The notes beneath the pieces were generated by a model that made no database searches, had not been told where the DNA came from, and was given only the letters and a program-made list of their open reading frames with translations. A stretch of DNA of 64,000 nt from a virus. Taxonomy: Duplodnaviria; Heunggongvirae; Uroviricota; Caudoviricetes. Within the stretch, counting starts at the first letter, position 1. The number at the start of each line of letters is the position of its first letter. This document shows, piece after piece, positions 8,184 to 47,077 of this stretch. Location: IMG/VR virus record IMGVR_UViG_3300042880_000509. One strand, written 5' to 3'. The position numbers and the translations under genes are program-made.

Positions 8184-9034
8184 AGGTTGTTAAAATTTCC
8201 TTTTTTGATTTTTTTATCGTCCAAAATAAAACATTTGTTTTCAACATCAATTTTATAACTTTTGTTTGGAAATGAAATATAATCACCGGTTGTAATATCA
8301 ACCAACATAATGTTTTCAACCTTCATACCAAGATAATTCTTTGGTAGTGGTGTGTTTAATATTAATTTTCCATCTTCTTCTGACATACCAGTTAATTCCT
8401 TTACTTGGAAACTCTTTCCGTTAATCTCCAAATCAATTCCGTGATCTCTATCTTGTTTAGATCCTGGAGGAAAATATTTGATATCGTATTTAGAGTTTTT
8501 TAATTTGTCAATAACATATTTTTCAGTGATACTTCCTTTATTGTAGGTATTCATATTAGCCCTAATAAGTTCTTTTAAAATAGGACCTTCATTTAATAAC
8601 CTTTCTTTATTATCAACTAACCATTTATAAAAATCTTTTGGTGTTTCACCTTTCTTTTCTTTTTTGAATATGTTTAGCAATCTATCTTTAACAAATTTGT
8701 GACCACCAAAATAATTTAAAATTGACCAACTTGTTAGTTCGTTAAGTGGATGTATGTCAATAATACCGCGTTTACTTTTATCTTCGTTCCAATCCAAATT
8801 ATCTTTATAAATTTCAAACAATAATTTATTTAAAAATTTAGCAAACCTACTATTATTTTGGATAAATTCAATATTTAAATTTCCTGGGTTGTTATCTTCT
8901 GAATCCACAATATTAATATAACCTTCTAATGATTTATCATTATTATTTTGATTAAAGTCAATTTCCATTTGATTTTCTGTTAGTCCCATCAAACTCAAAT
9001 TTCTTTTTATTTCGTTAATTATTGTTTTTTCCAT
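8180..9034 (-). CDS. Hypothetical protein (284 aa)
   Basis: Long ORF in coding-like sequence. Start overlaps the upstream gene stop (ATGA), suggesting translational coupling with the paralog array. Confidence 0.55.
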   Translation of the reverse strand: MEKTIINEIKRNLSLMGLTENQMEIDFNQNNNDKSLEGYINIVDSEDNNPGNLNIEFIQNNSRFAKFLNKLLFEIYKDNLDWNEDKSKRGIIDIHPLNELTSWSILNYFGGHKFVKDRLLNIFKKEKKGETPKDFYKWLVDNKERLLNEGPILKELIRANMNTYNKGSITEKYVIDKLKNSKYDIKYFPPGSKQDRDHGIDLEINGKSFQVKELTGMSEEDGKLILNTPLPKNYLGMKVENIMLVDITTGDYISFPNKSYKIDVENKCFILDDKKIKKGNFNNL

Positions 9035-9705
9035 TATTCAAAATTCTCCTCTTTTAATATTATTGGTTCACCTTTTGTAGTATTTCTTTCAACCCATACA
9101 TGATATAAATAACCATTATTATTTTGATTGTATAATTTTAATACTCCGTTACCACCGGCGTCTTCATCCCAACTATCGGTTTCTAATACTTCACTAATCA
9201 TCATTATTACGTCATAAGCAAAAAATCTGGTGTCTTGACGATTTAATTCCTTATTATTATATGTTATTGTACAGTCAAAATTATTTTCGTGTCCAGAATA
9301 ATCAATTATAAGTTCTTCAAGTTCCATATCTTCCATAAATTTTGATAGTGAATAATAGTCTCTTAATTGTCTCCAATCAAATTTCCTATTATCTTTTGAT
9401 TCTGTATATGTAAAATATTTTGGTATTAACATTATTTCTCTTTTTTTTGGATAAACACTAAAATCAACCCAGTATGCTGGTTCGTGTTTATCTGTTCTAT
9501 TATAAAGTTCTTCACCATAATTGGTTAGTATTGAATGAAAAAACTTTTTAAATATATCAATAATTGTAAATCTATGAGTTCTTTCTGTTACCCAATTTTC
9601 AGGAAAATGCTCAATATCACCAATCAACATATCAATATTTGTTCCTATTGGCCCAATTGGATTAAGGTATGCCATTAGTGCTCTAAATGTTCTTTTTTTT
9701 AACAT
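9034..9705 (-). CDS. Tandem-paralog family member 1 (223 aa), most divergent copy
   Basis: N-terminus MLKKRTFRALMAYLNPIG. Shares the YPKK..I and W-x-DAGGNG motifs with the neighbouring copies. Confidence 0.6.
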   Translation of the reverse strand: MLKKRTFRALMAYLNPIGPIGTNIDMLIGDIEHFPENWVTERTHRFTIIDIFKKFFHSILTNYGEELYNRTDKHEPAYWVDFSVYPKKREIMLIPKYFTYTESKDNRKFDWRQLRDYYSLSKFMEDMELEELIIDYSGHENNFDCTITYNNKELNRQDTRFFAYDVIMMISEVLETDSWDEDAGGNGVLKLYNQNNNGYLYHVWVERNTTKGEPIILKEENFE

Positions 9706-9710
9706 ATTAT

Positions 9711-10388
9711 TTAAGGTAAAGAATCTTCTGTTATTTCAATATCAATTTCATTTGAATCATCGTCCTCAGTATTCCACTCGTGATTAACACTTATTTCATC
9801 TTTTGTAAATACAATATTTCCTTGTGATCCTTCATTTATTTCCCAGCCCCCATATTCTTCGAGTAAATCATAGCAAATATGTTCAATATCTTCATCTATT
9901 TGTCCATTCTTATTTTTAGATGTATAATCACTTTCAATGTATCCGGAATCACCACCACCATTATAACTTATAGTCATATCTTCAATTCCTTCGTGTTCTA
10001 AGAATTTTCTTACTTCCATAAATGTAGAATACATACCATCATCTTCTTCATAATCATCAATATATACTTCATATCCACTATCTGATGTGCCGTATGATGT
10101 AAACCTAACTTGGTTAAAAACAATTTTATTTTCAAACGGATAAATCTCTCCATCAACATAAAAATAATCACTTGCACTTTGTACAGAGCCAGGACCTTCA
10201 TCGTATAATTCATTGGTATATAGTTCAAGAATTGTTTGGAGATGTGATTCAAAATTTGATGTAATATCAACACCGTAATAAATATTTATATCTTCAATAT
10301 GAGTTTCACTTATTGTAATTTCAAAAGGTATTGATTCCTTTTTAAACCCTTTCAGGTATGCCATTAACATTTTAAATTTTTTTTTCAT
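9711..10388 (-). CDS. Tandem-paralog family member 2 (225 aa)
   Basis: MKKKFKMLMAYLKGFKK. Contains IYPFENKIVF, NGGGDSGYIES, GGWEINEGSQGNIVF and HEWNTED. Confidence 0.65.
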   Translation of the reverse strand: MKKKFKMLMAYLKGFKKESIPFEITISETHIEDINIYYGVDITSNFESHLQTILELYTNELYDEGPGSVQSASDYFYVDGEIYPFENKIVFNQVRFTSYGTSDSGYEVYIDDYEEDDGMYSTFMEVRKFLEHEGIEDMTISYNGGGDSGYIESDYTSKNKNGQIDEDIEHICYDLLEEYGGWEINEGSQGNIVFTKDEISVNHEWNTEDDDSNEIDIEITEDSLP

Positions 10389-11086
10389 TATTGGTAAGTA
10401 TCTAAATTTATTTCTAATCTCATATCAGTTGGTTCGTAATCTTGATCTTTGGTAAAACCTTTTACAAAAATACTGTCACCCCAAACTATAATGTTTCCTT
10501 CAGCACCGGCTTCCATATTCCAAAACCTACTATTAGTTATTTTTTGCATAAGTTCATTAGTAATCATCCATAAATCTTCACTCATTTGATTGGTAATTTT
10601 AATTAGTTGTCCATCAAGTTCAAGATCGTAAATATGACCATCATCCCAACGACCATAAAAATCAAATTCAAATTTTACTAGGTCTTCATTATCTTCATAA
10701 AATGATAATATTCTTTCTTTACTTTCTTTTGACATATCACCATAATATGTATCATATTTAAATCTTTCTCTATTTTCAACTTTACATGAAGATGTAAAAA
10801 TAATTTTATTTTCAAATGGATGTATTTCAATATTCAAATACCAATATTCGTCAATATCTAAATCAAGATAGTTATAAAAATCATCCATGTGATTTTTAAT
10901 TAATTCTTCTATGAATTTTTCAAAATGTGATGGTAATAATAGTCTTTTTGTATTTCTTTGTTCATTTGTCACATCAAATCTACCCCAATCTTCAATGTGA
11001 GTCCTATCCATTACAATAGAAGTATCAACAAGATGTCCTTTGAGTCCTCTTAAAAAAGCAAAAAATAATTTTAATCTTTGTTTCAT
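10388..11086 (-). CDS. Tandem-paralog family member 3 (232 aa)
   Basis: MKQRLKLFFAFLRGLKG. Contains IHPFENKIIF and WNMEAGAEGNIIVWG. Shares 1 nt with the neighbouring gene. Confidence 0.65.
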   Translation of the reverse strand: MKQRLKLFFAFLRGLKGHLVDTSIVMDRTHIEDWGRFDVTNEQRNTKRLLLPSHFEKFIEELIKNHMDDFYNYLDLDIDEYWYLNIEIHPFENKIIFTSSCKVENRERFKYDTYYGDMSKESKERILSFYEDNEDLVKFEFDFYGRWDDGHIYDLELDGQLIKITNQMSEDLWMITNELMQKITNSRFWNMEAGAEGNIIVWGDSIFVKGFTKDQDYEPTDMRLEINLDTYQ

Positions 11087-11772
11087 TCTTCTATATTGTC
11101 CGGTGTTACATTTATATTCATTTCTGTCATCTCATGATCTTTGGATTTTGTAAAAAATTCCATTCTTATTGATTTATCTTTCTCAACGTAAATTGTACCG
11201 TAACTACCAGGTCCATCAGTCCACCATCTGTCAAGAATATTTGTCATTAATTGATCTGTTAACTCAATATAATTTATATCGTCATTTATAAAAATATAAA
11301 AATCAAGGTTAACATCTATTTGATCATAATTACCATTAAATTCAAAATTAAATTTATCTTTATCTTTTAGATCTTCATTAAATATTGTATCAACTAAATC
11401 AAGAGTAGTTGTTGATAATTGTGTATTTTTTCTATTTAAACTAAATGTTTGTTGGCCATCATATTCGCTTACTATCTCACATTCGCTTTGAAAATTTATT
11501 CTATTTTGTTTTGGGTAAACATATACAAGTAATGTCCACCATTCACTTTCATCATAATCGTTTTCTCTGTGAAACTTTTGCATATATGATTTTAATATGT
11601 CCTCAAATGTCTCTTGTAATTTTGTTGGTAATTCTATTTCTTTACCTTCTTTGGTTGTAAATTTTAAATCCCAACTTTCCATATGGTTATAGTCAAAATT
11701 GATATATGTATCCAATACATCTGTTTTAAATGCTCTAAAATATGCAAGTAATAATTTTAATTTTTGTTTCAT
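11083..11772 (-). CDS. Tandem-paralog family member 4 (229 aa)
   Basis: MKQKLKLLLAYFRAFKT. Contains VYPKQNRINF and WWTDGPGSYGTIYVE. 4-nt overlap with the neighbouring gene. Confidence 0.65.
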   Translation of the reverse strand: MKQKLKLLLAYFRAFKTDVLDTYINFDYNHMESWDLKFTTKEGKEIELPTKLQETFEDILKSYMQKFHRENDYDESEWWTLLVYVYPKQNRINFQSECEIVSEYDGQQTFSLNRKNTQLSTTTLDLVDTIFNEDLKDKDKFNFEFNGNYDQIDVNLDFYIFINDDINYIELTDQLMTNILDRWWTDGPGSYGTIYVEKDKSIRMEFFTKSKDHEMTEMNINVTPDNIEE

Positions 11773-12437
11773 TCTTCCAGGTCATCTTCTTTAATTTCAA
11801 TTGTATCATGACAATCAACCATTTCTCTCATATTCCATTCGTGAGAAATTACAATTTCCAAATTATTATTTAATTCAATTGTTCCGACAGATCCGTCATC
11901 TATCTCCCAACCACCGTAAGCGTTTTCTAGATTATCATAAAGTGTGTTCCAAATTAATTTATTGTCATCACTATCTGAATGCCAGGTAATGTTTGAACTT
12001 TCACCATCAACTGTTATTGAATCGATATCTCCGCTGTCTCCACCACCACTATATCTTGCTTCAATTATTTCAACACCAGTTGTTTTAAAATAATCTTCTA
12101 ATTCTGGGTTTTTTAATTTTCTTTCATAAGTTTCAGCTTGTGATGTATATTCTTCTGCTTTCATTGAAACCACAATTTTTTTATCTTTCGGGTATATGTC
12201 GGCAATTACATTATAGTAATCGCTTTCACTCCAGCAATCTATATCATTTATTTGATCTTCTATTGACTCTAAAATATCAGTAATAAGGTTAACAATATTT
12301 TTAGGTAGTGATTGTATTTCAACACCAAAAGGCCATTGCCATTCAGTATTACCATCATAATTGTTCCATATAACAGATATTTTGTCCTTTTTGAGTTTAG
12401 ACAAAAAAGACATTAACATTCTAAATTTTCTTTTCAT
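11769..12437 (-). CDS. Tandem-paralog family member 5 (222 aa)
   Basis: MKRKFRMLMSFLSKLKK. Contains IYPKDKKIVV, YSGGGDSGDIDS, GGWEIDDGSVGTIEL and SHEWNMRE. 4-nt overlap with the neighbouring gene. Confidence 0.65.
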   Translation of the reverse strand: MKRKFRMLMSFLSKLKKDKISVIWNNYDGNTEWQWPFGVEIQSLPKNIVNLITDILESIEDQINDIDCWSESDYYNVIADIYPKDKKIVVSMKAEEYTSQAETYERKLKNPELEDYFKTTGVEIIEARYSGGGDSGDIDSITVDGESSNITWHSDSDDNKLIWNTLYDNLENAYGGWEIDDGSVGTIELNNNLEIVISHEWNMREMVDCHDTIEIKEDDLEE

Positions 12438-18275: not shown

Positions 18276-19874
18276 ATGATACATTCACGTAAACTAATAT
18301 TATTTTCATCAATATCTTTGATGTTCATATTCCTATTAACTAAAACATTAATTTTATTAAATTTAGTTAGTCCTAGCGACATCACAAGGGTTATTGAAAT
18401 GTTTTGTTTTTTAACATTTTCACCATTATTTTATTTTTTAATGAAAAAACAAAATGTGGACTTGAAAAGTGGTTTATTAAAACAAATTAAAGATAGTGAA
18501 GAATTTATTGATTCCGCAACAATTGTTTCTGTTGCCGATAAGTATGGTAAAATCACATACGTTAATAAAAAATTTGAAGAAGTTTCTGGGTGGTCTTTAG
18601 ATGAGGTTAAAGGTATGGATCATAGTGTTGTTAACTCTGGCTTGCAACCTGATGGGTATTGGGGAAAGATGTATGAGACTGTAATGAAAGGTGAGATATG
18701 GAATGATGTTGTTACAAATAAAGGAAAGTCGGGTGAACTATATTATGTTGATACATACATCAAAGCAAAATTTGATAAGAAGGGTAAGTTAGATGGGTTT
18801 TCATCCATCAGACAAGATGTTACAGAACTTAAAAGAAAAGAAATGGAAATCCGTAATAGAATGAACGCAATAAATAAATCTAATGCTGTTATTGAGTTTG
18901 ATTTAGAAGGAAACATCATTTTTGCTAATGAATTGTTTTTAAATACTATGGGTTATTCTTCGCCGGATGAAGTAATTGGGAAACACCACAGAATTTTTAT
19001 TGATGAAGATCACTTAAAAAGTGAGGAATATTCTATTTTTTGGAAAAAACTAAATGATGGTATATTATTTACTGGTGAAATTACTAGAGTCAAAAAAGAC
19101 GGGTCTTTAGTTTATTTACAAGCAACTTACAACCCAATTATTGGTGTGGATGGTAAGATTTATCGTGTTATGAAAATAGCAACAGACGTAACCAATTCTT
19201 ATGAACAAAAGAAAGAGATAGAAAAGAAAAATACCTATTTAGAACACGCTGCTAAAATATTAAGACACGATATGCACTCTGGTATTAACACATATATGCC
19301 AAGAGGGTTAAGTTCTTTAGAAAGAAGGTTAAGTTCTGAAGATATTACATCGTTAAAGATTGAAGCTCCAATTAGAATGATTAAAGAAGGATTAAAACAT
19401 TCTCAAAAAGTATATAAAGGAGTTTATGAATTTACCAATCTAGTTAAAAAAGATGTTGTTTTAAATAAAACTGAATGTAATTTAAAATCAATTTTATCTG
19501 ATTACCTATCATCAACAGCATATTTAAGTCAAGTAATTATTGAAGACTTACCTACAATAGAAGTAAACGAAGCGTTATTTTGTACCGCAGTTGATAATTT
19601 AATTAGAAACGGTTTAAAATATAACGATTCAGATACCAAATTTGTTAAAATTTATTCCGATGAGAATAATATTTACATACAAGATAACGGTAGAGGAATC
19701 ACACAAGAAGATTTTGATCACTTATCTAAACCATACACAAGAAAAGAAGGGCAAAAAGAATCTGGTACTGGTTTAGGTTTAAATATTTGCGTTGCTATTT
19801 TAGAAGAGCACGGGTTTAATATTACTTGTGAGAAAAATGAAATAGGAACAAAAATGAAAATAAAAATAAAATAA
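18276..19874 (+). CDS. Membrane-anchored sensor histidine kinase with two PAS domains
   Basis: Two N-terminal hydrophobic helices. PAS 1: ATIVSVADKYGKITYVNKKFEEVSGWS...DGFSSIRQDVTE. PAS 2: AVIEFDLEGNIIFANELF...DGKIYRVMKIATDVT. H-box region AAKILRHDMHSG. HATPase_c N-box NLIRNGLKYN, G1 DNGRGI, G2 GTGLGLNI. Confidence 0.8.
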   Translation: MIHSRKLILFSSISLMFIFLLTKTLILLNLVSPSDITRVIEMFCFLTFSPLFYFLMKKQNVDLKSGLLKQIKDSEEFIDSATIVSVADKYGKITYVNKKFEEVSGWSLDEVKGMDHSVVNSGLQPDGYWGKMYETVMKGEIWNDVVTNKGKSGELYYVDTYIKAKFDKKGKLDGFSSIRQDVTELKRKEMEIRNRMNAINKSNAVIEFDLEGNIIFANELFLNTMGYSSPDEVIGKHHRIFIDEDHLKSEEYSIFWKKLNDGILFTGEITRVKKDGSLVYLQATYNPIIGVDGKIYRVMKIATDVTNSYEQKKEIEKKNTYLEHAAKILRHDMHSGINTYMPRGLSSLERRLSSEDITSLKIEAPIRMIKEGLKHSQKVYKGVYEFTNLVKKDVVLNKTECNLKSILSDYLSSTAYLSQVIIEDLPTIEVNEALFCTAVDNLIRNGLKYNDSDTKFVKIYSDENNIYIQDNGRGITQEDFDHLSKPYTRKEGQKESGTGLGLNICVAILEEHGFNITCEKNEIGTKMKIKIK

Positions 19875-22105: not shown

Positions 22106-22738
22106 CTATTCATTATCATAAAACATTCTGTCAGAATCTTCTGTATGCCATTTCTCGTAATCTTCTACATTATAGTTTTCATTACAAACCAGATAGTCAG
22201 GTTTATCTGGAAAAGGTTTGGTAACAAATGAAGGTTCAGACCATTTAATCCTATTGTTTGGTTGAAGGGCAATCTGTCCATTGTCAAGAAGTATAATATG
22301 ATGAGACTTATGTTCATCAGGAGTTTCTGATAATGTAAGATCAGTGTTCATATCATTACTACCCCAGTTAATAGTAGCATAATAACTTCCTTTATACCAC
22401 TTTTTATCTTTAGCATAAAATTCTACGGGAGCGTCTTTTAAATAATTGAGTTGTAACAATGTAAAGTTATACGAGAAACAATTCCATATCTGTAAGTAAT
22501 GAAATGGTAAATCTAAATCTGGTAGTTGAGGTTTGGTCATTAGGGCATGTGAGGGGAGTTTATCTCTAAGCACTCCATTCTCTAATAGTACTTGGAATAA
22601 TGCTGCCTGTCCCGGCATACATCTAACAGAAATTATAACCCCTGGTGTAAATTCTCCTAAACCTTTAGTTTTTTGATATAAATACTCATCCCTAACAAAG
22701 ACCTTCAAAGGAAAAAAATTGTGTTCTATATATGCCAT
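22106..22738 (-). CDS. Hypothetical protein (210 aa)
   Basis: Non-repetitive ORF. No recognised motif. Confidence 0.55.
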   Translation of the reverse strand: MAYIEHNFFPLKVFVRDEYLYQKTKGLGEFTPGVIISVRCMPGQAALFQVLLENGVLRDKLPSHALMTKPQLPDLDLPFHYLQIWNCFSYNFTLLQLNYLKDAPVEFYAKDKKWYKGSYYATINWGSNDMNTDLTLSETPDEHKSHHIILLDNGQIALQPNNRIKWSEPSFVTKPFPDKPDYLVCNENYNVEDYEKWHTEDSDRMFYDNE

Positions 22739-24857: not shown

Positions 24858-25085
24858 TTACTCCGATTTAAAATTAGATATATAATATTGTCCTGCACTA
24901 GAAAAACCATCTCCTCCAGCTGCGCTATTCCAAGCCTCCATTATCTGATCTTCAAACATTTTGTTGGATTGCTCTAATAACAAATCAAGTTGATTTCTAA
25001 ACTCAAGTACATCAATATTTCCTTGTTCTCTTTGTGTCATTAACTCAATTACTTTTAAGTTATACCATTCTACTGCCGTTTTCAT
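24858..25085 (-). CDS. Hypothetical protein (75 aa)
   Basis: ORF. Confidence 0.4.
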   Translation of the reverse strand: MKTAVEWYNLKVIELMTQREQGNIDVLEFRNQLDLLLEQSNKMFEDQIMEAWNSAAGGDGFSSAGQYYISNFKSE

Positions 25086-25106
25086 AATTTTTTATTTTTT
25101 AATTTG

Positions 25107-25225
25107 TAGTCAGGACAGGACTCGAACCCGTACGAATATCTTTACACCTGACCCAACCACAAGGACCAGGATTTCGGTAATATTCACTGTTTTGTCTGTT
25201 GCGTCTACCATTCCGCCACCTGACT
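25107..25225 (-). tRNA. tRNA-like element, non-canonical (about 116-118 nt); type-II (Leu-like) D-arm and canonical T-arm/acceptor but no recognisable anticodon arm
   Basis: Minus-strand read: GTCAGGTGGCGGAATGGTAGACGCA (compare E. coli tRNA-Leu GTGGCGGAATTGGTAGACGCG), then 3' ACGGGTTCGAGTCCTGT-CCTGAC (T-loop GGTTCGAGTCC). The acceptor 5' GTCAGG pairs with the 3' CCTGAC. The 8-mer GTCAGGTG recurs internally. No 7-nt U33-containing anticodon loop was found by eye. Confidence 0.4.
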
Positions 25226-25484
25226 ATAAAGTTACATATTCAATATCTTTTTTACATACAGTCATAAACACATGATGAAAAGTACTCTCTACAGGATTTG
25301 GACCAAAAGGTTGTTTGTGTGTTTTCAACTGCCCGTTAAGTTCTACATCGATAAAATCCTCGTGTAATCTTTCTTTGTATGTACTATCTTTATAAATTTT
25401 CATCTGTGGGTTTTCTTCCCAATTCCACTCTCTAATTACCAACCCTATTTGTCCGTCTTTTAATTTTACTGCTGTTTGTTTCAT
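25224..25484 (-). CDS. Hypothetical protein (86 aa)
   Basis: ORF. Its stop abuts the tRNA-like element. Confidence 0.5.
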   Translation of the reverse strand: MKQTAVKLKDGQIGLVIREWNWEENPQMKIYKDSTYKERLHEDFIDVELNGQLKTHKQPFGPNPVESTFHHVFMTVCKKDIEYVTL

Positions 25485-25508: not shown

Positions 25509-26204
25509 CTAATTTTCTAAATTCATTTTTAAAATTCCAATATGTTTTTTAATTTCATCTCTATATTGTTTAGCGATCACCCAAGGCGCCGTGGTACAAT
25601 TAAAATTATTTTCATTTATAAATTGTTTTACTCTGGTTTGTTCTTCTTCTAACAGATTTATCTGTTTTTTAATTTCTTCGCCCATATTATTTATTTTATT
25701 TAATGTTTCTTGTTTAGGTTCTTCTTGTGGAATGATGATTTTGTAATTCTCGTAAATACCTTCTTTAATAGTACCATCAGCAAATCTATCAATGTATTTA
25801 CCATCTTCCATTCTTTCAATCTCAACACACTCACAACTTGGATTCTTTACAAACCAATTCAAGAACTCATCATCAATAGCTTGAACACCATCTGCAATTA
25901 ACTCTGGGTCTGTTGTTAGAATGATTTTTTTGCAAGCATTTAATACTTCAGTAACTCCATCTTGAAATCTAATTATACCTATATTTGATTTAATTTCTAC
26001 TACTTTATGGACTAATTCTTCAGAACATAAACACCAATCTCCTTCTTTAATTTCTTCATTGGAAGTGATGTAGATATTATAATCTTGAAACCAATCTTCT
26101 TCTATTACATTTTCAAAATCATTATCTATTGTAAATATAGAATCTTTTTTATTGTAAAATAATCTACTTGGTTTTTCTGTTGGTAATAAATGTATGTTTT
26201 TCAT
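25509..26204 (-). CDS. Hypothetical protein, duplicated family (paralog of 29801..30580)
   Basis: The N-terminal 130 aa (MKNIHLLPTEKPSRL...KIILTTDPELIADGVQAIDDEFLNWFVKNPSCECVEI) align with those of the gene at 29801..30580. Confidence 0.6.
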   Translation of the reverse strand: MKNIHLLPTEKPSRLFYNKKDSIFTIDNDFENVIEEDWFQDYNIYITSNEEIKEGDWCLCSEELVHKVVEIKSNIGIIRFQDGVTEVLNACKKIILTTDPELIADGVQAIDDEFLNWFVKNPSCECVEIERMEDGKYIDRFADGTIKEGIYENYKIIIPQEEPKQETLNKINNMGEEIKKQINLLEEEQTRVKQFINENNFNCTTAPWVIAKQYRDEIKKHIGILKMNLEN

Positions 26205-26318: not shown

Positions 26319-27185
26319 CTATTGACATACCCAATTCCAAGTTGGGAAGTTTTTATTTCTTATCCTATCTCTTACACTACTGTCTGGCATATTAAAATAT
26401 TTTGCAGCTTCAACCGCAGAATTAAATAACAAACCATCAATCATACATTTTTTAGCTTGTGGTTTTGGTGGTTCTATCAATGCGTATTTTTCTTTTCTTT
26501 TTTCATTCGCTAATTTTGATATTTCTTTACCACCAATTCTACCTTTTTTCCATCCCTCTTCAATAATTCTTGGATCATCAGGTAATGTCCTTAAATGTTC
26601 TCCTTTATCATTATAAAACCACAACTTATTTTTGTGTGCGATTGACATTTTTTCTTTTGTTTTGTCAGTGTGTCTGTGATCAGAACTTTTTTTTCTTAAT
26701 ATTTTTAGTGTCTCATCTGTATGTTTTTTTCCGTAGAATGAATTTTTTTCACCGCCATATTTACCAATTCTTGATAAACTAATTTTGTTTCTTTGTTCTT
26801 CTGTAAGTTTTTTACCAAAATTTGGATTATTAGTCCCTCTTATACTTTTAGAATAATCTTCCTTTATTAAATCATATAACCTTGAATTTATTTTATGTCT
26901 TTCTTGGTATTCTCTCTTAACATTACACATATTCCATAATGCAAATCTTAATTTTGTGTTTTTAGGGTAAATTTCACATAAAAGTAAATGACAGATGAAA
27001 TGTTCTCTAGCGGTTAAAACAACTAAATTCCAAACATCATTTGACCCCCCAAGACATTTTGGTATGATGTGATGTGTTTCTGTGTATCCAGTGATAGTTC
27101 TATTTTTACCTCTTTCAACAATACTATTATAAATTTTCAAATAATCCATCGGTTTCCGTATATTATATAAATATATGGAAACCAA
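26319..27185 (-). CDS. Freestanding HNH homing endonuclease with NUMOD-like DNA-binding repeats
   Basis: HNH motif ETHHIIPKCLGGSNDVWNLVVLTAREHFICH. Repeated GKK(L/H)T(E/D)E..-K(I/M)S modules (NPNFGKKLTEEQRNKISLS, NSFYGKKHTDETLKILRKK). Likely start at the internal MDYLKIYNS. Confidence 0.8.
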   Translation of the reverse strand: MVSIYLYNIRKPMDYLKIYNSIVERGKNRTITGYTETHHIIPKCLGGSNDVWNLVVLTAREHFICHLLLCEIYPKNTKLRFALWNMCNVKREYQERHKINSRLYDLIKEDYSKSIRGTNNPNFGKKLTEEQRNKISLSRIGKYGGEKNSFYGKKHTDETLKILRKKSSDHRHTDKTKEKMSIAHKNKLWFYNDKGEHLRTLPDDPRIIEEGWKKGRIGGKEISKLANEKRKEKYALIEPPKPQAKKCMIDGLLFNSAVEAAKYFNMPDSSVRDRIRNKNFPTWNWVCQ

Positions 27186-29800: not shown

Positions 29801-30580
29801 TCATTTTATATGTTGTTTCTTTTTAAATTGTTCAAATGATTCTTCATTTATTGTAAAGCTCATTACACCAAGTGCTTTAGCAACAGATATTTCAATTGCA
29901 TTCTTTAGTTCTTCCTCACTATACATTCTTTCAGATTGGTATTTAGCACCTAACCTAACTCCATCATAAAAAGATAAATCTATATCATCTTGTAATCCCT
30001 TTTGGTAAGTTCTTTCAGCAGCTTCTTCAAGTGTTTCATCTTTACTAGTACCTGACTTCTCTCTCATCTCTTGTAAGTCCTTAGTAACTTTTTCCTTGTT
30101 TGTTAAAAGATATTCCCTAAGTGCTAATTTAGCATTTTCTAGTGTAGGATCTTGTTTAGGTTTTTCTTGTGGAATGATGATTTTTAGAAAAGAAGTAATT
30201 TCGGAAATATCACTTAAAACGCCACTATGATATTTTCTAATCTCTACAAACTCACAACTTGGATTCTTTACAAACCATTCTAAGAACTCATCATCAATAC
30301 TCTGAACACCCTCTTCAATTAACTCTTGGTCTGTTGTTAGAATAATTTTCTTACCATTATAATTAACACCTGATACTAAACAATATATATTACTATCCTC
30401 ACCTAAATAATATTCGTCAAATTTAATTTCTTCATCAGAAGTTATGTATAAATGATAATTCTTACAATGTCCTTTTGGTGTGTTAGTTAATCCATTAGTA
30501 TAAAGTTTAATGGATGAACTCCCACCAGGTTTAGTTAACCTACTTGGTTTTTCTGTTGGTAATACGTGTATGTTTTTCAT
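29801..30580 (-). CDS. Hypothetical protein, duplicated family (paralog of 25509..26204)
   Basis: MKNIHVLPTEKPSRL...KIILTTDQELIEEGVQSIDDEFLEWFVKNPSCEFVEI. The C-terminal half diverges from the paralog. Confidence 0.6.
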   Translation of the reverse strand: MKNIHVLPTEKPSRLTKPGGSSSIKLYTNGLTNTPKGHCKNYHLYITSDEEIKFDEYYLGEDSNIYCLVSGVNYNGKKIILTTDQELIEEGVQSIDDEFLEWFVKNPSCEFVEIRKYHSGVLSDISEITSFLKIIIPQEKPKQDPTLENAKLALREYLLTNKEKVTKDLQEMREKSGTSKDETLEEAAERTYQKGLQDDIDLSFYDGVRLGAKYQSERMYSEEELKNAIEISVAKALGVMSFTINEESFEQFKKKQHIK

Positions 30581-31036: not shown

Positions 31037-32305
31037 TTATAAAAACAACTTTTTTGATTGTTTTTCTCTGTGAAATTTAATCGCAAAACGGTGAACTTCT
31101 TCCTGGATTTTACCAAACAAAGTAAAGTTTATATCATCTTTTATGTTAAACTCGGATCCATCAATTTTATGTATGATTGATGATTTGTGATTTGAATCTT
31201 TTGAAATTGAAATAAGGTCAACTTGGTCTAAAATTCCAAGATTTTCAAATACTTTTCTGGCAACACCTAATTGACCTTTACCACCATCAATGATTACAAG
31301 ATCCGGAAGTTTTTGTTTTTCATCAAGTAATCTTTTGAATCTACGGTTTAATACCTCATCAAATGATTGGTAGTCATCAACACCGGTAAAACTTCTAATG
31401 ATATATTTACGGTACTCTGATTTATCCGGAGTTTCATTTTTAAATCTAACTGATGCTGCAACATTTGAATCGCCCTGGTTGTGTGAGTTATCAAATGCTT
31501 CAATTGATACTGGAATGTTTTTAAGACCCAGAACATTTTTAATATCAAAAGCTTTTTTGTTATATTTCTGTAATCTTATAACATTCAACTTACTATCAAT
31601 ACTTTCCAAACTTGTAAGTTTTGATAATAAGTCTTGTGCTTTTTCAAACTCCAGATTGTCAGAGTAATACTTCATAGACTTCTTCAACTTTGTTTTAAGA
31701 CTGGAAATATCAAGTGATAGAACTTTTTTCACATCACGAATAATCTCATTGTAATAAAACTTTTTGATGTTATTCACGCAAGGAGCATTACATCTTCCCA
31801 AGTGAAATTCCAAACAGGTCTTGAACTTTTCTTTTGTGATATTTTCTTCCGTTAAATCATAAGAACAACTACGAAGTTCAAAGACATCGTGAATAAGATT
31901 ATAGATCTCACGACATAACATTCCGGAAGTAAAATCCAAACTTACTCTGTCGTCTTGTTTGTCTCTTACAATCTCTAGTTTTGGAAATTCTTCTTCTGTA
32001 AAGCACAAAGACCATTTTCTGGTCTTATCATCTTTTCCTTTGATGTTGAACTTTGGTTTGTATAACTTGATTAGTTCTTCTTCTAGGATAATTGCTTCTT
32101 GTTCTGATGATGTAATCTTGAACTCAACATCAACAATGTTTTCAACAAGGGTTTTTGTTTTGCCTGTATGATTTTTTTGAAAATAAGATGAAACCCTTTT
32201 TGGTAAAAACTTGGACATACCAACATAGATGATTTGTTCTTTGTCGTTTTTGAACAAATAACAACCTGCATTTTTTGGTATGTCTTTAAGTTTTTCTAAT
32301 ATCAT
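31037..32305 (-). CDS. UvrC-like nuclease (GIY-YIG domain plus UvrC RNase-H-like endonuclease domain), lacking the C-terminal HhH region
   Basis: GIY-YIG motif GCYLFKN...IIYVGMSKFLPKRVSSYF. UvrC-homology region LIKLYKPKFN. Cys-rich motif RSCSY...GRCNAPCV. C-terminal IEAFDNSH...YRKY...DDYQSFDEV...PDLVIIDGGKGQL. Only 422 aa compared with about 610 for bacterial UvrC. Confidence 0.8.
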   Translation of the reverse strand: MILEKLKDIPKNAGCYLFKNDKEQIIYVGMSKFLPKRVSSYFQKNHTGKTKTLVENIVDVEFKITSSEQEAIILEEELIKLYKPKFNIKGKDDKTRKWSLCFTEEEFPKLEIVRDKQDDRVSLDFTSGMLCREIYNLIHDVFELRSCSYDLTEENITKEKFKTCLEFHLGRCNAPCVNNIKKFYYNEIIRDVKKVLSLDISSLKTKLKKSMKYYSDNLEFEKAQDLLSKLTSLESIDSKLNVIRLQKYNKKAFDIKNVLGLKNIPVSIEAFDNSHNQGDSNVAASVRFKNETPDKSEYRKYIIRSFTGVDDYQSFDEVLNRRFKRLLDEKQKLPDLVIIDGGKGQLGVARKVFENLGILDQVDLISISKDSNHKSSIIHKIDGSEFNIKDDINFTLFGKIQEEVHRFAIKFHREKQSKKLFL

Positions 32306-33857: not shown

Positions 33858-34805
33858 TTATTTAATGTTTAAAAATGTTCCTGATCCACCCGCAACTGTT
33901 GTAGGAAGTTTTCCGTCCCAACTTTGTGCTTTCAAATATTCAACATAAAGAGGAGTTATTTCTTTTTGTTTTAATTTCATTGCCAAGGCCAAAGCTTGTG
34001 CGTCAATTATAACTTTTGCCGAATCACCACGGGCAATCGCGATTTTTTCTTGAGCTTCAGCTTCAGCAACTAACTTACGTTGTGTTGCAGCTTGTGCTTC
34101 CTGGACTGCTTTTGTTTTACCTTCAATTGCCTTTTGAAGAGACTCTGGCGGTGTGATATTAGTTCTTAACTGTGATACTTCAAACCATTTAGATAATCTT
34201 TTATTACACTCAGCAACAATTGCAGCTTCAAATTCTTCACGTTTATTAAAAATTGCATCTACCTCCCACTTATTGGCCACGTCATTCACTGAACTAACAA
34301 TCGCATTCATTAACCATCCTTGTTCAATTTGTTTTATATCCAATCTCAAGTTCTCAAACATATTCCCGATTGCTGTTGGTTTAAGTGAGTAGTTAAAACT
34401 TGGTTTAATTGTTGCTGCGAACCCACCTTTTGTAATTACAGTTTGATCCTTGTATTCAATATGTTGTTGGAATGTTGGAAACTCTAACATCTGTTCAGTC
34501 CAGGTATTATACATTACCCAACCAGTTTTATATTCATAACTTGATACACCTCGTTTGTCTCCAGTCAAATTAACTTTGATTCCAACGTGTCCTGCATCAA
34601 CTCTTTCAAGTGCGAATGGTTGAATACTAGAAATTACAATGCCTAACACAAAGATACCAATTGGTTTGAGTATCCACATTGTGTTAAACATTTGTTTACT
34701 ATCGCCCCATCTGTCTGTTCCTGTTACATACATTCGGTCTCTTGTTGTAAATACCACAAACCCGGCAATTACCAATCCTAAAATAAAAATTAAAGTACTA
34801 ATCAT
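33858..34805 (-). CDS. SPFH/Band-7 (HflK/C-prohibitin-like) membrane protein
   Basis: N-terminal TM helix, then ERVDAGHVGIKVN... and a long Ala/Gln/Glu-rich coiled region (KAVQEAQAATQRKLVAEAEAQEKIAIARGDSAKVIIDAQA) typical of the PHB domain and its C-terminal helix. Confidence 0.75.
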   Translation of the reverse strand: MISTLIFILGLVIAGFVVFTTRDRMYVTGTDRWGDSKQMFNTMWILKPIGIFVLGIVISSIQPFALERVDAGHVGIKVNLTGDKRGVSSYEYKTGWVMYNTWTEQMLEFPTFQQHIEYKDQTVITKGGFAATIKPSFNYSLKPTAIGNMFENLRLDIKQIEQGWLMNAIVSSVNDVANKWEVDAIFNKREEFEAAIVAECNKRLSKWFEVSQLRTNITPPESLQKAIEGKTKAVQEAQAATQRKLVAEAEAQEKIAIARGDSAKVIIDAQALALAMKLKQKEITPLYVEYLKAQSWDGKLPTTVAGGSGTFLNIK

Positions 34806-38921: not shown

Positions 38922-39650
38922 TTAATAAATGTTAAACTTAATTGGTATGTTTAACCTTGATCTAACATTCACTTTATTAATTCTACCTGGAATCCATTTA
39001 GGCGAACTTTTAATTACCCTTCTTGCTTCTCTGTCTACTTCAAAGCTAACCCCTTTTGTTACTTTTACATCACCAATACTTCCATCAGTTTCAACTATAA
39101 ACATAACATATACAGTTCCTTGATCCCCATTCTCAATTGCAATCTCAGGATATTTCATTTCCTTTAAAAGATATTTTTTCCATTCCTCATATCCTCCAGG
39201 AAATTCAGCTTCAATATCAGGAAAATCCTCAACCTTATCTGGAGCCACAACAGGGACAGGATCTACATTAACAAGTACAGTTGTATCTCCTTTTGGTAAA
39301 CCTAAATCAACAAAAGGATTGTTATCGGTGGGTCCGGTGTTTGATGTAGTGTCAACATCACTATTTAAATCCAAAGTTTCATCTTTTTGTGATTCTGATT
39401 GTGGTTGTGGTTGTTCTTTTGGTGGTTCAACAACTGGTGGTTTTTCGGTTGCGTCAACCAATAAATTGGTGTTTTCGGGTGATAATCTTTTGAATTTTTC
39501 TTCAATTGGTTCTGTTTTTCCGTATGAGACTGCAGCTAAAACAATCCCGCTAATAAAACAAAGACCAGCCATAAAATTACCTAATTTTTTTTCTTCTAAA
39601 TTGTGATTACTTTTCTTTTCCATAACTATTATTTTCGTTATGGAATACAA
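38922..39650 (-). CDS. TonB-like protein: N-terminal TM anchor, Pro-rich spacer, TonB C-terminal domain
   Basis: TM helix LGNFMAGLCFISGIVLAAV. Spacer KPPVVEPPKEQPQPQSESQ. C-terminus EFPGGYEEWKKYLLKEMKYPEIAIENGDQGTVYVMFIVETDGSIGDVKVTKGVSFEVDREARRVIKSSPKWIPG matches the TonB_C signature. Confidence 0.6.
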   Translation of the reverse strand: MYSITKIIVMEKKSNHNLEEKKLGNFMAGLCFISGIVLAAVSYGKTEPIEEKFKRLSPENTNLLVDATEKPPVVEPPKEQPQPQSESQKDETLDLNSDVDTTSNTGPTDNNPFVDLGLPKGDTTVLVNVDPVPVVAPDKVEDFPDIEAEFPGGYEEWKKYLLKEMKYPEIAIENGDQGTVYVMFIVETDGSIGDVKVTKGVSFEVDREARRVIKSSPKWIPGRINKVNVRSRLNIPIKFNIY

Positions 39651-45919: not shown

Positions 45920-45958
45920 ATAAAAAAAAGTGACTCAACCAAGTTAATGGGAGTCACC
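45920..45958 (-). terminator. Intrinsic terminator overlapping the last codons of the RNA ligase gene (GTGACTC...GAGTCAC plus T8)
   Basis: 7-bp stem with a 14-nt loop. The minus strand continues with TTTTTTTT. Confidence 0.65.
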
Positions 45959-47077
45959 TACGTTATTTTTTTCACCATATATCAAGTAATCAGGATTTAT
46001 TACCTTACTTACTTTTCTACGGTCACCAGTTATAGATTTAACAACAACACCTTCGTGTGGTACTTTGGTGCCTTCTATGTTATTATTGAAGACGAATTTA
46101 TCTTGTTCTTCTTTATTCCAATTACCCTGGTATAACAATTCAACTTGTGGTAATTGTAAACAATCAAAATGTACGGTTTCATTTATGTAAGGCTGGTATA
46201 CACCATCAACTTCAACATCAAACCCGGCGAATTTAACATCAGTTAAACCGTACTCATAGTTTTTTTGTATACCAGCTCCATATATCTCACCATATATTAC
46301 AACACCTTCAGTTAGGTCAGATGGTTCGTAAGTATCTTTTACGTGATCCCACAATTTACCTCTTATGTCGTATGTGCTACCAACAGTTTTCCATACATCG
46401 GTGTCATAGAAGCCTTGAGAATCGGATCCTTTCTCAACATTATGTGAGCCGTAAACATATTCAAATGCAACCCATTGATTTCCGAAAAACATTTTAACAC
46501 GGTCCCATAGAGAAAGTTTTTTCTTTCTAACTATTCCGTAACGAGCATTGGTTCCGTGAAGTTTACGAGTTATAACAACTTCGTCTTCTTCACTAAACAT
46601 ATCCGGAACATTCTTCTGGTTTGGAAATTTGTAATAAACATGGAAGTTAGGGTTTTGATGGTATTTTACTTTACGTCCACCAACACTTAACTGAACGGTT
46701 TTAACTGGTGGTTCGTATTTAGTTATACCAAGTATTCCCATCATATCATCGCCTTCGTTTACGTTATTCTCCAAAGATTTTGGAGCTAAGTACTTGAATG
46801 GTATTAACAAACATTCAGAGTAAACACCACGAAGTTTTACGGTTCTAACTCTTTGCCCTTTACGAAGGTAATTAGTTACACCCATTAAATCAGATAAATC
46901 CTGTGGTATTACAGCATCGGTAGTTGCTACAACAACCTTATCACCAACCTGGTATTCTCCTTTTTTAGTTATGGCGTTCCATCCACCAACAGTTACTAAT
47001 TCTATATTATCAGCACCCGGTATTTCAGACACGGATCCTATTTTTCCTACGTATGCAACACTATTTAAATTTTTCAT
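45944..47077 (-). CDS. RNA ligase (Rnl2-like nucleotidyltransferase) with N-terminal tRNA-binding OB-fold (Myf/Trbp111-like) domain
   Basis: N-terminus AYVGKIGSVSEIPGADNIELVTVGGW...KGEYQVGDKVVVA matches the tRNA_bind fold. Motif I KLHGTN (Rnl2 KIHGTN). EGVVIYGE, GFDV and a C-terminal PHEGVVVKS...RRKVSKV (motifs IV/V). Confidence 0.6.
   Translation of the reverse strand: MKNLNSVAYVGKIGSVSEIPGADNIELVTVGGWNAITKKGEYQVGDKVVVATTDAVIPQDLSDLMGVTNYLRKGQRVRTVKLRGVYSECLLIPFKYLAPKSLENNVNEGDDMMGILGITKYEPPVKTVQLSVGGRKVKYHQNPNFHVYYKFPNQKNVPDMFSEEDEVVITRKLHGTNARYGIVRKKKLSLWDRVKMFFGNQWVAFEYVYGSHNVEKGSDSQGFYDTDVWKTVGSTYDIRGKLWDHVKDTYEPSDLTEGVVIYGEIYGAGIQKNYEYGLTDVKFAGFDVEVDGVYQPYINETVHFDCLQLPQVELLYQGNWNKEEQDKFVFNNNIEGTKVPHEGVVVKSITGDRRKVSKVINPDYLIYGEKNNVGDSH

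Follow-up and report, generated by a model that had tools for sequence, protein, structure and literature searches.

In tmRNA, the 5′ and 3′ ends of the molecule form a tRNA-like domain with a functional non-tRNA segment between them, and the RNA is aminoacylated without an anticodon. The same topology is found in a 119-nt element on the minus strand of the window, as the whole 64,000-nt stretch of phage DNA analysed here (Caudoviricetes, IMG/VR record IMGVR_UViG_3300042880_000509) is called in the following. The two differ in that tmRNA has the alanine identity pair G3-U70, where the phage element has U-A at 3-70, and in that tmRNA lacks a D-stem, is longer than 250 nt and contains pseudoknots and a tag reading frame. 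Species 1 and 2 of phage T4 (rnaC and rnaD) resemble the element as small stable phage RNAs encoded in a tRNA cluster beside a GIY-YIG gene, segB. Like the element, rnaC combines a canonical T-arm (CCGGGUUCGAAUCCCGG) with an acceptor-type stem that encloses non-tRNA sequence; unlike it, rnaC is without a tRNA-Leu D-arm and has a 47-nt 5′ extension, and we know of no series of rnaC variants in which a constant shell carries variable inserts. To our knowledge, none of tmRNA, the Y RNAs, T4 species 1 and 2 and the viral 3′ tRNA-like structures is a constant shell with hundreds of type-conserved payloads. The closest analogue for how the phage element would work is the tRNA scaffold of Ponchon and Dardel, in which the RNA of interest reportedly replaces the anticodon arm and the chimera is processed and stabilised as a tRNA in bacteria; the scaffold, a tool for recombinant RNA expression that was employed in PMC3753655, is engineered, whereas the element is natural. 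No natural counterpart of this scaffold with hundreds of payloads was described in the literature searched.

The determinants of E. coli tRNA-Leu are A73, A15-U48, G18G19 and A20a, and E. coli LeuRS still charges variants that lack both the anticodon arm and the variable arm (PMC9976931). According to the summary given there of the work of Larkin et al. [quoted passage not shown] The phage family described below keeps the same features and replaces the same two arms; the minimal substrates are laboratory deletions without an insert, whereas the phage elements are natural genes that resemble them by sequence only. YrlA RNAs, some of which are phage-encoded, contain a tRNA-like module with D-, T- and acceptor-like arms that is recognised by tRNA enzymes, the RNA ends forming the Ro-binding stem at the anticodon position and the 'acceptor' being a closed stem-loop (PMC4201824). 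The topology of the phage element is the reverse, as its RNA ends form the acceptor stem. Rfam scans of the element and related loci gave no YrlA match, and no Ro/TROVE gene or domain was found among the subset of window ORFs scanned. GOLLD and ROOL are large phage ncRNAs that occur close to tRNA islands, and the linker of GOLLD sometimes contains tRNAs (PMC12286853). A GOLLD RNA directly adjoins a tRNA and a family element in one contig (L179). GOLLD and ROOL are, however, conserved, cage-forming RNAs of 400-800 nt or more, whereas the phage elements are about 75-210 nt long and their variable part is not conserved family-wide.

Layout and detection of the tRNA-like gene

The gene extends on the minus strand from A1 at position 25225 to the discriminator A73 at 25107. 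Three features of canonical tRNAs are present, namely an acceptor stem of 7 bp with discriminator, a D-arm with G18G19 and a T-arm with a T-Psi-C loop. The 5′ strand of the acceptor stem, AGTCAGG (AGUCAGG in the RNA), is located at 25225-25219 and is followed by U8 and G9 (25218-25217) and by the D-arm, which reads GCG-GAATGGTAGA-CGC in DNA letters (25216-25201). Taken together with U8 and G9 (25201-25218), this is the D-arm of a class-II tRNA-Leu, GCG-GAAUGGUAGA-CGC, with A14, A15, G18G19 and A20a, and its sequence is the same as that of the D-arm of a functional cyanophage tRNA-Leu(UAA). An insert of 69 nt (25132-25200) replaces the anticodon arm and the variable arm. It is followed by the T-arm ACGGG-TTCGAGT-CCTGT (RNA ACGGG-UUCGAGU-CCUGU; 25131-25115), by the 3′ strand of the acceptor stem, CCTGACT (RNA CCUGACU; 25114-25108), and by A73. 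The assignments were made from the sequence, with additional support from family covariation for the acceptor stem and from both the tRNA model alignment (RF00005) and family covariation for the T-arm. An earlier reading of the letters of this stretch (the sequence-only reading) had described a type-II D-arm and a canonical T-arm without an anticodon arm; this was correct, and the sequence was confirmed on the minus strand. Its pairing of the 3′ acceptor strand with a 5′ GTCAGG also held, but not in extent: because A25225 pairs with T25108, the stem comprises 7 bp and not 6. The CAGAC...GTCAG pairing that it had offered for the middle part is without comparative support.

ARAGORN in its default mode reported no tRNA anywhere in the window, and Rfam with standard filters gave no match for the element. 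With relaxed filters, applied to positions 24900-25450, RF00005 matched at 35.5 bits (gathering threshold 29; E = 8e-6), the alignment spanning 25225-25107 with 52 nt skipped in the anticodon arm. A family covariance model (R1), which was built from 59 relatives with the window copy left out, scored 81.2 bits on the element (E about 2e-20) and found no second copy over the window. A relaxed Rfam scan at E up to 10 returned nothing within the element beyond tRNA, and no group I match. A tmRNA or two-piece tmRNA was rejected, as neither the tmRNA mode of ARAGORN nor the relaxed Rfam scan found one at the locus. The only ARAGORN call at the locus was made in intron mode, as Thr(GGT) with a 26-nt intron at 30/31 and a 30-nt variable arm, and is implausible. 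The default modes of ARAGORN and Rfam overlook elements of this family or label short ones as odd tRNAs; the family model is usable for their annotation and avoids miscalls as tRNAs, pseudo-tRNAs or intron-containing tRNAs.

The shared tRNA shell in uncultured phages

The first pattern search found the shell in 59 viral contigs, and a metagenome scan found it in at least 120 contigs; the metagenome and genome scans demanded an exact 25-nt 5′ half, so that their sampling is biased. More than 200 copies of the shell come from contigs of uncultured phages, mostly from freshwater metagenomes, and the at least 213 elements carry at least 169 distinct inserts of 23-161 nt in at least 148 similarity clusters. 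Insert lengths in the viral contigs are continuous from 24 to 112 nt, and most inserts have 40-90 nt. The consensus shell reads AGUCAGG-UG-GCGGAAUGGUAGACGC ... ACAGG-UUCRANU-CCUGU-CCUGACU-A, with the insert between the two parts and with U(-1) and C74 at the outer edges, and the window copy conforms to it with a single difference at one T-stem position (ACGGG, forming a G-U pair). With the family model, members reach 45-90 bits, whereas T4 rnaC scores 25.5 bits, compared with 29.5 for T4 tRNA-Leu and 29.0 for T4 tRNA-Ser. Some genomes contain several copies. Some elements sit in tRNA clusters, and there are arrays of 3-6 elements that directly follow one another or are interspersed with tRNAs, without intervening ORFs. 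The 2.5-kb region around the window element had no blastn match in cultured phages, where queries with the element and its joined halves retrieved generic tRNA pieces only; matches in cyanophages S-H35 and S-B64 were rejected as relatives, being ordinary unannotated tRNA-Leu(UAA) genes. The family is large and apparently undescribed: a full-text literature search found no prior description of such a shell/insert family, and a survey of viral structured RNAs mentions uncharacterised candidates overlapping tRNAs.

In an unbiased set, which was chosen solely by D-arm and T-loop sequence, the pair cells of the shell are paired in 98.9% of cases, versus 32-40% with the partners slid. Two-sided changes were observed at all seven acceptor pairs and at three of the five T-stem pairs, values that were reached in none of 500 shuffles. 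Shell and acceptor sequence vary far less than do the bodies of the canonical tRNAs that element-bearing contigs also encode, and the canonical tRNA-Leu genes among these have different bodies. The shell, which includes U8/A14 besides the three arms, A15-U48, G18G19 and A73, is a selected RNA structure common to hundreds of elements in uncultured phages. A degenerate tRNA, one of four explanations considered in the sequence-only reading, is contradicted by the strong purifying selection and by the compensatory changes. A relic integration site, another of the four, is at odds with halves that are in register and covary as RNA, with a conserved unit whose ends are the RNA ends, and with the distribution of the exact 25-nt 5′ half, which a scan of 185,579 species genomes recovered from 8 MAG contigs only. 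For the same distribution, mimicry of a host tRNA-Leu was rejected.

The positions kept in the shell are those by which tRNA-Leu is recognised in E. coli. A15, G18G19 and A20a are invariant, U48, which is the last insert position, is present in 95% of the family, and the discriminator is A in 131 of 148 representatives. The T-loop TTCRA is conserved, and the tertiary pairs G18-U55, G19-C56 and U54-A58 can form at the level of sequence. The conserved features match the E. coli LeuRS identity set, under rules that come from E. coli and Aquifex and may not be those of the hosts. The 3′ trailer of the window copy (25086-25106, minus strand) consists of C74 and an A-rich stretch of 20 nt up to the ATG of the next ORF at 25085, and CCA is not encoded. 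C74 followed by an A-rich run occurs in 144 of 148 family members, and the same N73-C-A/T-A-A trailer is found in 345 canonical tRNAs of the same contigs. U(-1) precedes the element in 122 of 148 members, and leader and trailer of the elements match those of the real tRNAs of these phages.

A decoding tRNA with a short intron, whether of the bulge-helix-bulge type, of group I or of a new type, and perhaps joined by a phage RNA ligase, would account for the intron-mode call of ARAGORN and for the Rnl2/Rnl5-type RNA ligase gene located about 20 kb away at 45944-47077, besides which no other tRNA-specific gene was found among the scanned window proteins. This explanation is close to refuted. Applied to 55 relatives, the intron mode called 31 different anticodons and placed the intron anywhere between positions 30 and 39, and an anticodon stem-loop (5-bp stem, 7-nt loop, U33 and R37) is present at positions 27-43 in none of 148 insert types. 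Anticodon-type stem-loops anywhere in the inserts number 7, versus 7.9 expected by chance, and are thus without excess. Inserts of 23-27 nt are too short for an anticodon arm plus a variable region, and no group I or other ribozyme match was found in the element or in 20 related loci. An intron or insertion in a decoding tRNA, as the sequence-only reading had proposed among its four explanations, fails on these inconsistent calls and on exons that cannot rebuild an anticodon arm. An ordinary tRNA overlooked by software was rejected for the absence of that arm. The RNA cannot read codons.

Structure and exchange of the inserts

The inserts are more structured than their dinucleotide shuffles (mean z = -0.76, p = 7e-16), and compensatory changes preserve their hairpins in diverged pairs (m38/m64, m110/m108 and m82/m140). 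Inserts with 94-100% identity were found in contigs that are unrelated to each other over the 250-nt flanks, the homology starting at -2/-3 and stopping at +3/+4. The same insert was also found in different shells (L135 versus L143 and L155; L013 versus L084). No motif shared by the inserts was found: only the junction positions are constrained, and k-mer enrichment is weak. T-arm-like hairpins are a minor feature (7 versus 2.4 expected), and Rfam families gave no match among the inserts of 20 related loci at E up to 0.5. The inserts are structured and kept within each type, and differ in nearly every element. Shell and insert are inherited and exchanged as one unit, the edges of which are the RNA ends.

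These properties bear on an explanation in which the shell alone is functional. The RNA would be a tRNA-Leu mimic, charged or not, that titrates or exploits LeuRS, EF-Tu, Leu/Phe-tRNA protein transferase, a tRNA-targeting toxin or a defence nuclease, while the insert merely avoids decoding and folds compactly. The coincidence of the conserved positions with the LeuRS identity set, the replacement of just those parts that LeuRS can spare and the constancy of the shell, acceptor included, are in its favour, and several copies per genome would raise the dose. A decoy, however, has no need of at least 148 different structured inserts of 23-161 nt. Conservation within each insert type is 88-100% even where the contexts are unrelated, compensatory changes occur, and insert types move from one shell to another. 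A spacer without use should be shortened by deletion bias, but most inserts keep 40-90 nt. A function of the shell alone is considered unlikely.

Identical elements with sharp boundaries and unrelated flanks would also be produced by selfish or relic DNA, that is, by a miniature mobile element, a homing or recombination hotspot, or a decayed tRNA-Leu or att site kept at the DNA level. When the window is compared with L062, its closest relative, the break in similarity falls exactly within the element. The element is also preceded, at a distance of 1.1 kb, by a gene for a GIY-YIG/NUMOD3 homing endonuclease, comparable to SegB in the T4 tRNA cluster. The acceptor stem, the T stem and the insert hairpins, however, show compensatory changes, a signature of selection at the RNA level, and the tertiary pair U48-A15 and the processing context of U(-1) and C74 are conserved as well. 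Neither target-site duplications nor an associated transposase or integrase were found, and copies of a MITE are alike internally, whereas in the phage elements the interior is the part that differs. An origin as selfish or relic DNA is judged highly improbable.

The insert of the window copy is unlike any of 168 other inserts. It recurs only in an identical contig, L058, and no diverged homologues were found in the viral collection searched. Its A-rich 5′ segment, AACAGACAAAACAGU (25186-25200, minus strand), is predicted to be unpaired in constrained and unconstrained folds. The remainder is predicted to form a two-tier hairpin (25134-25185, minus strand; MFE -14.5 kcal/mol), with an outer stem GAAUAUU/GAUAUUC (25185-25179 with 25140-25134), an inner stem CCUGGUCC/GGGUCAGG (25170-25163 with 25154-25147) and a loop UUGUGGUU (25162-25155). 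Because the insert is a singleton with no diverged homologue, this fold is a prediction without covariation support, and the predicted stability (z = -0.67) is unremarkable. The internal repeat of an 8-mer that had been noticed in the sequence-only reading is present, as GTCAGGTG occurs again at 25152-25145; this copy of GUCAGGUG (25145-25152, minus strand) has the same letters as acceptor positions 2-9. Because of it, the unconstrained fold of the window copy pairs the insert with the 3′ acceptor strand, so that the GUCAGGUG repeat competes with the acceptor stem. An internal acceptor copy of at least 6 nt was found in no more than 7 of 148 inserts, the longest match averages 3.97 nt versus 3.85 nt in shuffles, and 146 of 148 relatives retain the acceptor stem when folded without constraints. 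As it is not shared by the family, the repeat was rejected as a designed alternative fold. The window contains no antisense target of the window insert, its A-rich segment included, and none of any insert was found within the fetched loci.

Genomic setting and proposed function

The window element is tightly placed between two ORFs of the same strand. U(-1), A1 and G2 (25224-25226, minus strand) form the UAG stop codon of an upstream ORF of 86 aa (25224-25484), and a downstream ORF of 75 aa (24858-25085, minus strand) starts 21 nt past the element. Throughout the family, elements are packed between same-strand ORFs with gaps of mostly 5-22 nt: an ORF ends within 60 nt upstream of the element in 51 of 138 cases, the next ORF mostly starts 8-22 nt downstream, and all 40 model matches in unbiased loci are co-oriented with the anchoring gene. 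The junction TAG closes an ORF in only 8 of 109 cases, and a stop codon overlapping position 1 was rejected as a general regulatory device for this rarity. No partner protein family co-occurs within 4 kb. The most frequent neighbour is a family of small ORFs that was found at only 20 of 188 loci; one of its members is a window ORF, most likely the 75-aa ORF as judged from a sequence motif. The flanking ORFs and a neighbouring 231-aa protein gave no informative match in Pfam, PHROG, PADLOC or PDB.

The very short gaps and the uniform orientation, together with an upstream stop codon that overlaps position 1 and an ATG only 21 nt off in the window, would be expected of a cis-acting processing signal in polycistronic phage mRNA. 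Cuts by RNase P and a 3′ endonuclease would then part the cistrons and set mRNA ends, stability or relative expression, with the excised RNA as a by-product. A type-specific conserved insert, A73 and A15-U48 would, however, all be superfluous for a processing signal, and the arrays of elements lying back to back or among tRNAs have no ORFs to separate. Identical elements, moreover, adjoin unrelated genes, and the overlap with a stop codon is rare. We regard a cis-acting role as improbable.

The reading preferred here is that the product of the locus is a small, non-decoding RNA of tRNA-Leu ancestry, in which a constant tRNA shell carries a variable payload; its probability is put at roughly 0.55. 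A tRNA-derived regulatory RNA had been the closest of the four explanations of the sequence-only reading, from which a large family with constant shell and hypervariable inserts was invisible, as one window only was at hand. As a small RNA with a payload, the element would be co-transcribed with the flanking ORFs and cleaved by RNase P between U(-1) and A1. The 3′ end would be trimmed at A73 or C74, and CCA would be added by host enzymes, as for the real tRNAs of the phage. The L-shaped shell would give the RNA stability and defined ends. Charging with leucine and binding of EF-Tu may be possible, since all parts needed by LeuRS are kept and only unneeded parts are replaced. The insert would be the effector, acting on a host or phage target as a protein-binding, RNA-binding or decoy module. 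A shell that serves stability only would leave the constancy of AGUCAGG unexplained; this constancy may point to a partner that recognises the sequence or to frequent exchange of the element.

A more far-reaching version, which is offered tentatively and is on balance doubtful, is that of a natural 'tRNA display'. The leucine-tRNA shell, by providing processing, stability and perhaps leucylation or EF-Tu binding, would present a huge repertoire of exchangeable structured RNA modules, serving as decoys, aptamers or regulators directed at host factors, for example those of RNA-guided or RNA-sensing defence, and cassettes of about 120 nt would be swapped between phages.

If this is true, the elements would be an RNA counterpart to the hypervariable accessory-gene repertoires of phages and a natural precedent of the engineered tRNA scaffold. 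If the preferred reading of a shell with a payload is right, phage tRNA regions would harbour a large class of accessory RNAs that is hidden from standard annotation, the tRNA scaffold would have arisen in nature before it did in biotechnology, and the family may comprise a set of aminoacylated RNAs outside decoding. With hundreds of natural insert swaps on one shell, the family makes the role of T4-type stable tRNA-like RNAs testable.

The tRNA-like element and its gene context

The window is phage DNA with a G+C content of 29.6% and encodes an endolysin-type protein, an AAA+ ATPase with clamp-loader-like matches, an RNA ligase, a thymidylate synthase, two DNA methylases, a GIY-YIG/NUMOD3 homing endonuclease and many small ORFs. 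On the minus strand, from 25225 to 25107, the sequence was read as AGTCAGG-TG-GCG-GAATGGTAGA-CGC-[69 nt]-ACGGG-TTCGAGT-CCTGT-CCTGACT-A. This corresponds to a 7-bp acceptor stem, U8, G9, a 3-bp class-II D-stem, a tRNA-Leu-type D-loop, a canonical T-arm and a discriminator A (the shell), with an insert of 69 nt in place of the anticodon and variable arms. The acceptor pairing noted in the sequence-only reading is present, its length having been counted one base pair too short there. The D-arm sequence containing GAATGGTAGA is identical in the functional tRNA-Leu(UAA) of cyanophage S-H35.

The ARAGORN and covariance-model searches proposed in the sequence-only reading gave different outcomes. ARAGORN in default mode detected no tRNA anywhere in the window, and its intron mode made a call that is not credible: Thr(GGT), interrupted at 30/31 by an intron of 26 nt, with a variable arm of 30 nt. 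With normal filters, Rfam gave no match in the whole window at a permissive E-value; when 24900-25450 was searched alone with relaxed filters, the tRNA model RF00005 matched with 35.5 bits (gathering threshold 29, E = 8e-6), skipping 52 nt at the place of the anticodon arm. A family covariance model, built from 59 relatives with the window copy left out, scored the element at 81.2 bits and the rest of the window at no more than 11 bits. The claim of a tRNA-like element therefore stands, beyond chance.

The element takes up the whole space between two minus-strand ORFs. U(-1), A1 and G2 form the UAG with which an 86-aa ORF (25224-25484) ends, and the ATG of the next ORF (25085) lies 21 nt past the discriminator. 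A promoter or terminator of its own would find no space here. The insert of the window copy is predicted to fold into a 15-nt A-rich unpaired 5′ segment followed by a two-tier hairpin; for a singleton insert of ordinary stability (z = -0.67), this fold is a prediction only. The acceptor stem was lost in the unconstrained fold of 2 of 148 elements, among them the window copy because of its internal GUCAGGUG repeat.

Several other genes of the window are unusual auxiliary genes, encoding a PAS-domain histidine kinase (18276-19874, plus strand) and, on the minus strand, a protein matching phrog_3704 (22106-22738; annotated 'ferredoxin' in PHROGs), a UvrC-like endonuclease with GIY-YIG and RNase H domains (31037-32305), an SPFH/Band-7 protein (33858-34805) and a TonB C-terminal domain protein (38922-39650), the last of which suggests a Gram-negative host. 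Five consecutive minus-strand ORFs of 222-232 aa (9034-12437) are mutually diverged paralogues (21-34% identity, E down to 5e-27); the one of them that was searched against Pfam (9034-9705) had no match.

A family with a constant shell

In a first pattern search of IMG/VR, in which the D-arm of the window element had to be followed by its T-loop 57-87 nt later, 59 contigs were found. About two thirds of these have the whole shell AGTCAGGTGGCGGAATGGTAGACGC ... ACAGGTTCGAGTCCTGTCCTGACTA in common, but the contigs have unrelated sequences between its halves. When the full shell served as pattern, the length of the middle varied continuously from 24 to 112 nt, and an anticodon arm was absent even from middles of tRNA length. 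The exact 25-nt 5′ half occurs in at least 120 metagenome contigs; among 185,579 species genomes it was confined to 8 contigs, all from MAGs, most of them short and taxonomically unrelated. Of 50,697 deposited phage genomes, none had both halves together. An invariant 5′ half was a condition of the metagenome and genome searches. No such condition accounts for the nearly invariant 3′ half, or for the prevalence of AGTCAGG in the first set, whose contigs were chosen by D-arm and T-loop only. The pooled total amounts to at least 213 elements with at least 169 distinct inserts (23-161 nt) in at least 148 similarity clusters, here termed types; the sole match of the window insert, among the pooled elements and IMG/VR, is an identical IMG/VR contig.

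Loci not fetched via the element were obtained through relatives of the 231-aa protein encoded just upstream of it (25509-26204, minus). In 26 of these 77 loci the family model gave 40 hits, all on the strand of the anchoring gene, and 18 loci held a hit above 44 bits. The 231-aa protein has 344 relatives in IMG/VR and a paralogue of 48% identity 4 kb away (29801-30580, minus), and no informative match in Pfam, PHROG, PADLOC or PDB.

Covariation was assessed in the 31 distinct shells of the unbiased first set with positions taken blindly. Pair cells were paired in 98.9% of cases vs 32-40% when the 3′ partners were slid by 1-3 columns, and both-sided changes were seen in 7/7 acceptor pairs and 3/5 T-stem pairs (acceptor stems AGTCAAG/CTTGATT, AGTGTGG/CCACACA and GGGACCG/CGGTCCC; T-stem GAAGG/CCTTC). 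None of five covariation measures was reached by any of 500 shuffles. Across the 148 types, position 26 is U or A in 92%, position 48, the last insert base, is U in 95% and faces the invariant A15, and the discriminator is A in 131. The shell is thus a selected RNA structure, and its junction positions are constrained as tRNA tertiary structure demands. A shell serving stability would leave the constancy of the acceptor sequence unexplained, which points to a sequence-specific partner or frequent exchange instead.

Selection on the inserts and modular inheritance

The absence of a canonical anticodon arm, reported from the sequence alone, holds for the family. A 5-bp stem with a 7-nt loop carrying U33 and R37 was found at positions 27-43 in none of the 148 insert types, which rules out a decoding tRNA, and such hairpins anywhere in the inserts were at chance level (7 observed vs 7.9 expected from shuffles). 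The suggestion of a tRNA interrupted by an intron or insertion is contradicted as well: in intron mode, ARAGORN assigned 31 different anticodons to 55 relatives and placed the intron at positions ranging from 30 to 39, the shortest inserts (23-27 nt) are too small for an anticodon arm, and the inserts tested matched no ribozyme or other Rfam family.

Rather than filler, the inserts are functional parts. As a class they exceed dinucleotide-matched shuffles in folding stability (mean z = -0.76, n = 142, p = 7e-16), and compensatory hairpin changes separate diverged copies of one type: GAGA/TCTC to ATGA/TCAT (inserts m38/m64), TCTG/CAGA to TCCG/CGGA (m110/m108) and AGCAC/GTGCT to AACAC/GTGTT (m82/m140). 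T-arm-like hairpins (GGGTTCGATTCCC, GTGGTTCGATTCCAC, ACGGTTTGAGTCCGT) lie within some inserts (contig L207:607-1636; also L212 and L214), in 7 inserts of the whole family vs 2.4 ± 1.6 expected, and could represent T-loop tertiary motifs or tRNA-like modules nested in the insert.

Many contig pairs share inserts of 94-100% identity within unrelated 250-nt flanks, the homology extending from 2-3 nt before position 1 to 3-4 nt past the discriminator, and one insert may be joined to different acceptor stems (L135 vs L143/L155; L013 vs L084). Because of these shared inserts, swapped shells and sharp limits, an RNA-shaped unit of about 120 nt is seen to persist and to be exchanged as a module. L062, the contig of the window phage's closest relative, has about 97% DNA identity over the upstream ORF and the 5′ shell; identity collapses at insert base 1, is back at the 3′ shell and is gone downstream. 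This break falls inside the element, and an I-TevI-like GIY-YIG/NUMOD3 homing endonuclease gene (26319-27185, minus) lies nearby, between thymidylate synthase and the element region, recalling SegB inside the T4 tRNA cluster. L062 also carries a tRNA with UCA anticodon (1934-2010; ARAGORN 'SeC', Rfam tRNA 62 bits), which would read UGA; phages of this group may thus recode or suppress a stop codon.

Processing, leucine identity and annotation

U(-1), which bacterial RNase P prefers, is present in 122/148 elements, and C74 followed by an A-rich run in 144/148; the identical trailer type occurs on 345 canonical tRNAs of the same contigs. The elements are usually packed in same-strand gene strings with gaps of mostly 5-22 nt, and about a quarter have a canonical tRNA within 500 nt. 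Arrays are formed by 4 standard-shell copies in L172 (4.5 kb) and 4 over-long tRNA-model hits in L183 (1.2 kb). In L179, a 1.3-kb freshwater metagenome contig, a family element (291-382) and a tRNA (532-602) adjoin a full-length GOLLD RNA (617-1024, minus; RF02032, 266 bits, E = 6e-75), a phage RNA found near tRNA islands (PMC12286853).

E. coli LeuRS needs A73, the A15-U48 trans-Levitt pair, G18G19, A20a and the D/T-loop tertiary pairs, and still charges tRNA-Leu variants without anticodon and variable arms (PMC9976931). Since the family keeps this set and replaces the dispensable arms, leucylation is plausible, by E. coli rules which may not be those of the host. The acceptor stems of canonical tRNA-Leu genes in the same contigs are unrelated to the shell, which is therefore not simply the phage's decoding tRNA-Leu.

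The nearest classical case is T4 rnaC (species 1 RNA; T4 locus L158:2410-2501), a stable RNA of a phage tRNA cluster with a T-arm and an acceptor-type stem. Its 3′ two-thirds can be drawn as a tRNA-like domain (8-bp stem ACGGAACG/CGUUUCGU, canonical T-arm) behind a 47-nt 5′ extension. The Rfam tRNA model did not match it (best, tRNA-Sec, 17.5 bits), and its family-model score, no better than that of ordinary class-II tRNAs, rules out membership. tmRNA is similar to the element in topology but not in identity, size or reading frame, whereas in YrlA Y RNAs the topology is reversed. Engineered tRNA scaffolds and minimal tRNA-Leu substrates are the closest analogues of its proposed mode of action.

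We propose that the element would be co-transcribed with neighbouring genes, excised by RNase P, trimmed at the 3′ end and provided with CCA; the L-shaped shell would be stable, perhaps leucylated, and the insert may act as effector on some target. No partner protein co-occurred within 4 kb of the elements, no antisense site was found in the window or the fetched loci, and the adjoining proteins had no informative annotation. The RNA ligase encoded about 20 kb from the element (45944-47077, minus; PF09414, N-terminal PHA02142 OB-fold domain, phrog_968) may be connected with the repair or maturation of tRNA-like RNAs.

The locus holds a genuine tRNA-derived non-coding RNA gene under selection. 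It belongs to a large family that combines a constant tRNA-Leu-type shell with a hypervariable insert and is apparently undescribed (no description in the searchable literature or Rfam 15). Because of speed filters, whole-window Rfam scans miss it even at E up to 1, and it is found only with a short stretch or with filters off; short-insert relatives in other contigs are labelled tRNAs by ARAGORN, with anticodons that are arbitrary (Cys ACA, Tyr AUA and Met CAU among others). Public phage annotations probably miss or mislabel elements of this family.
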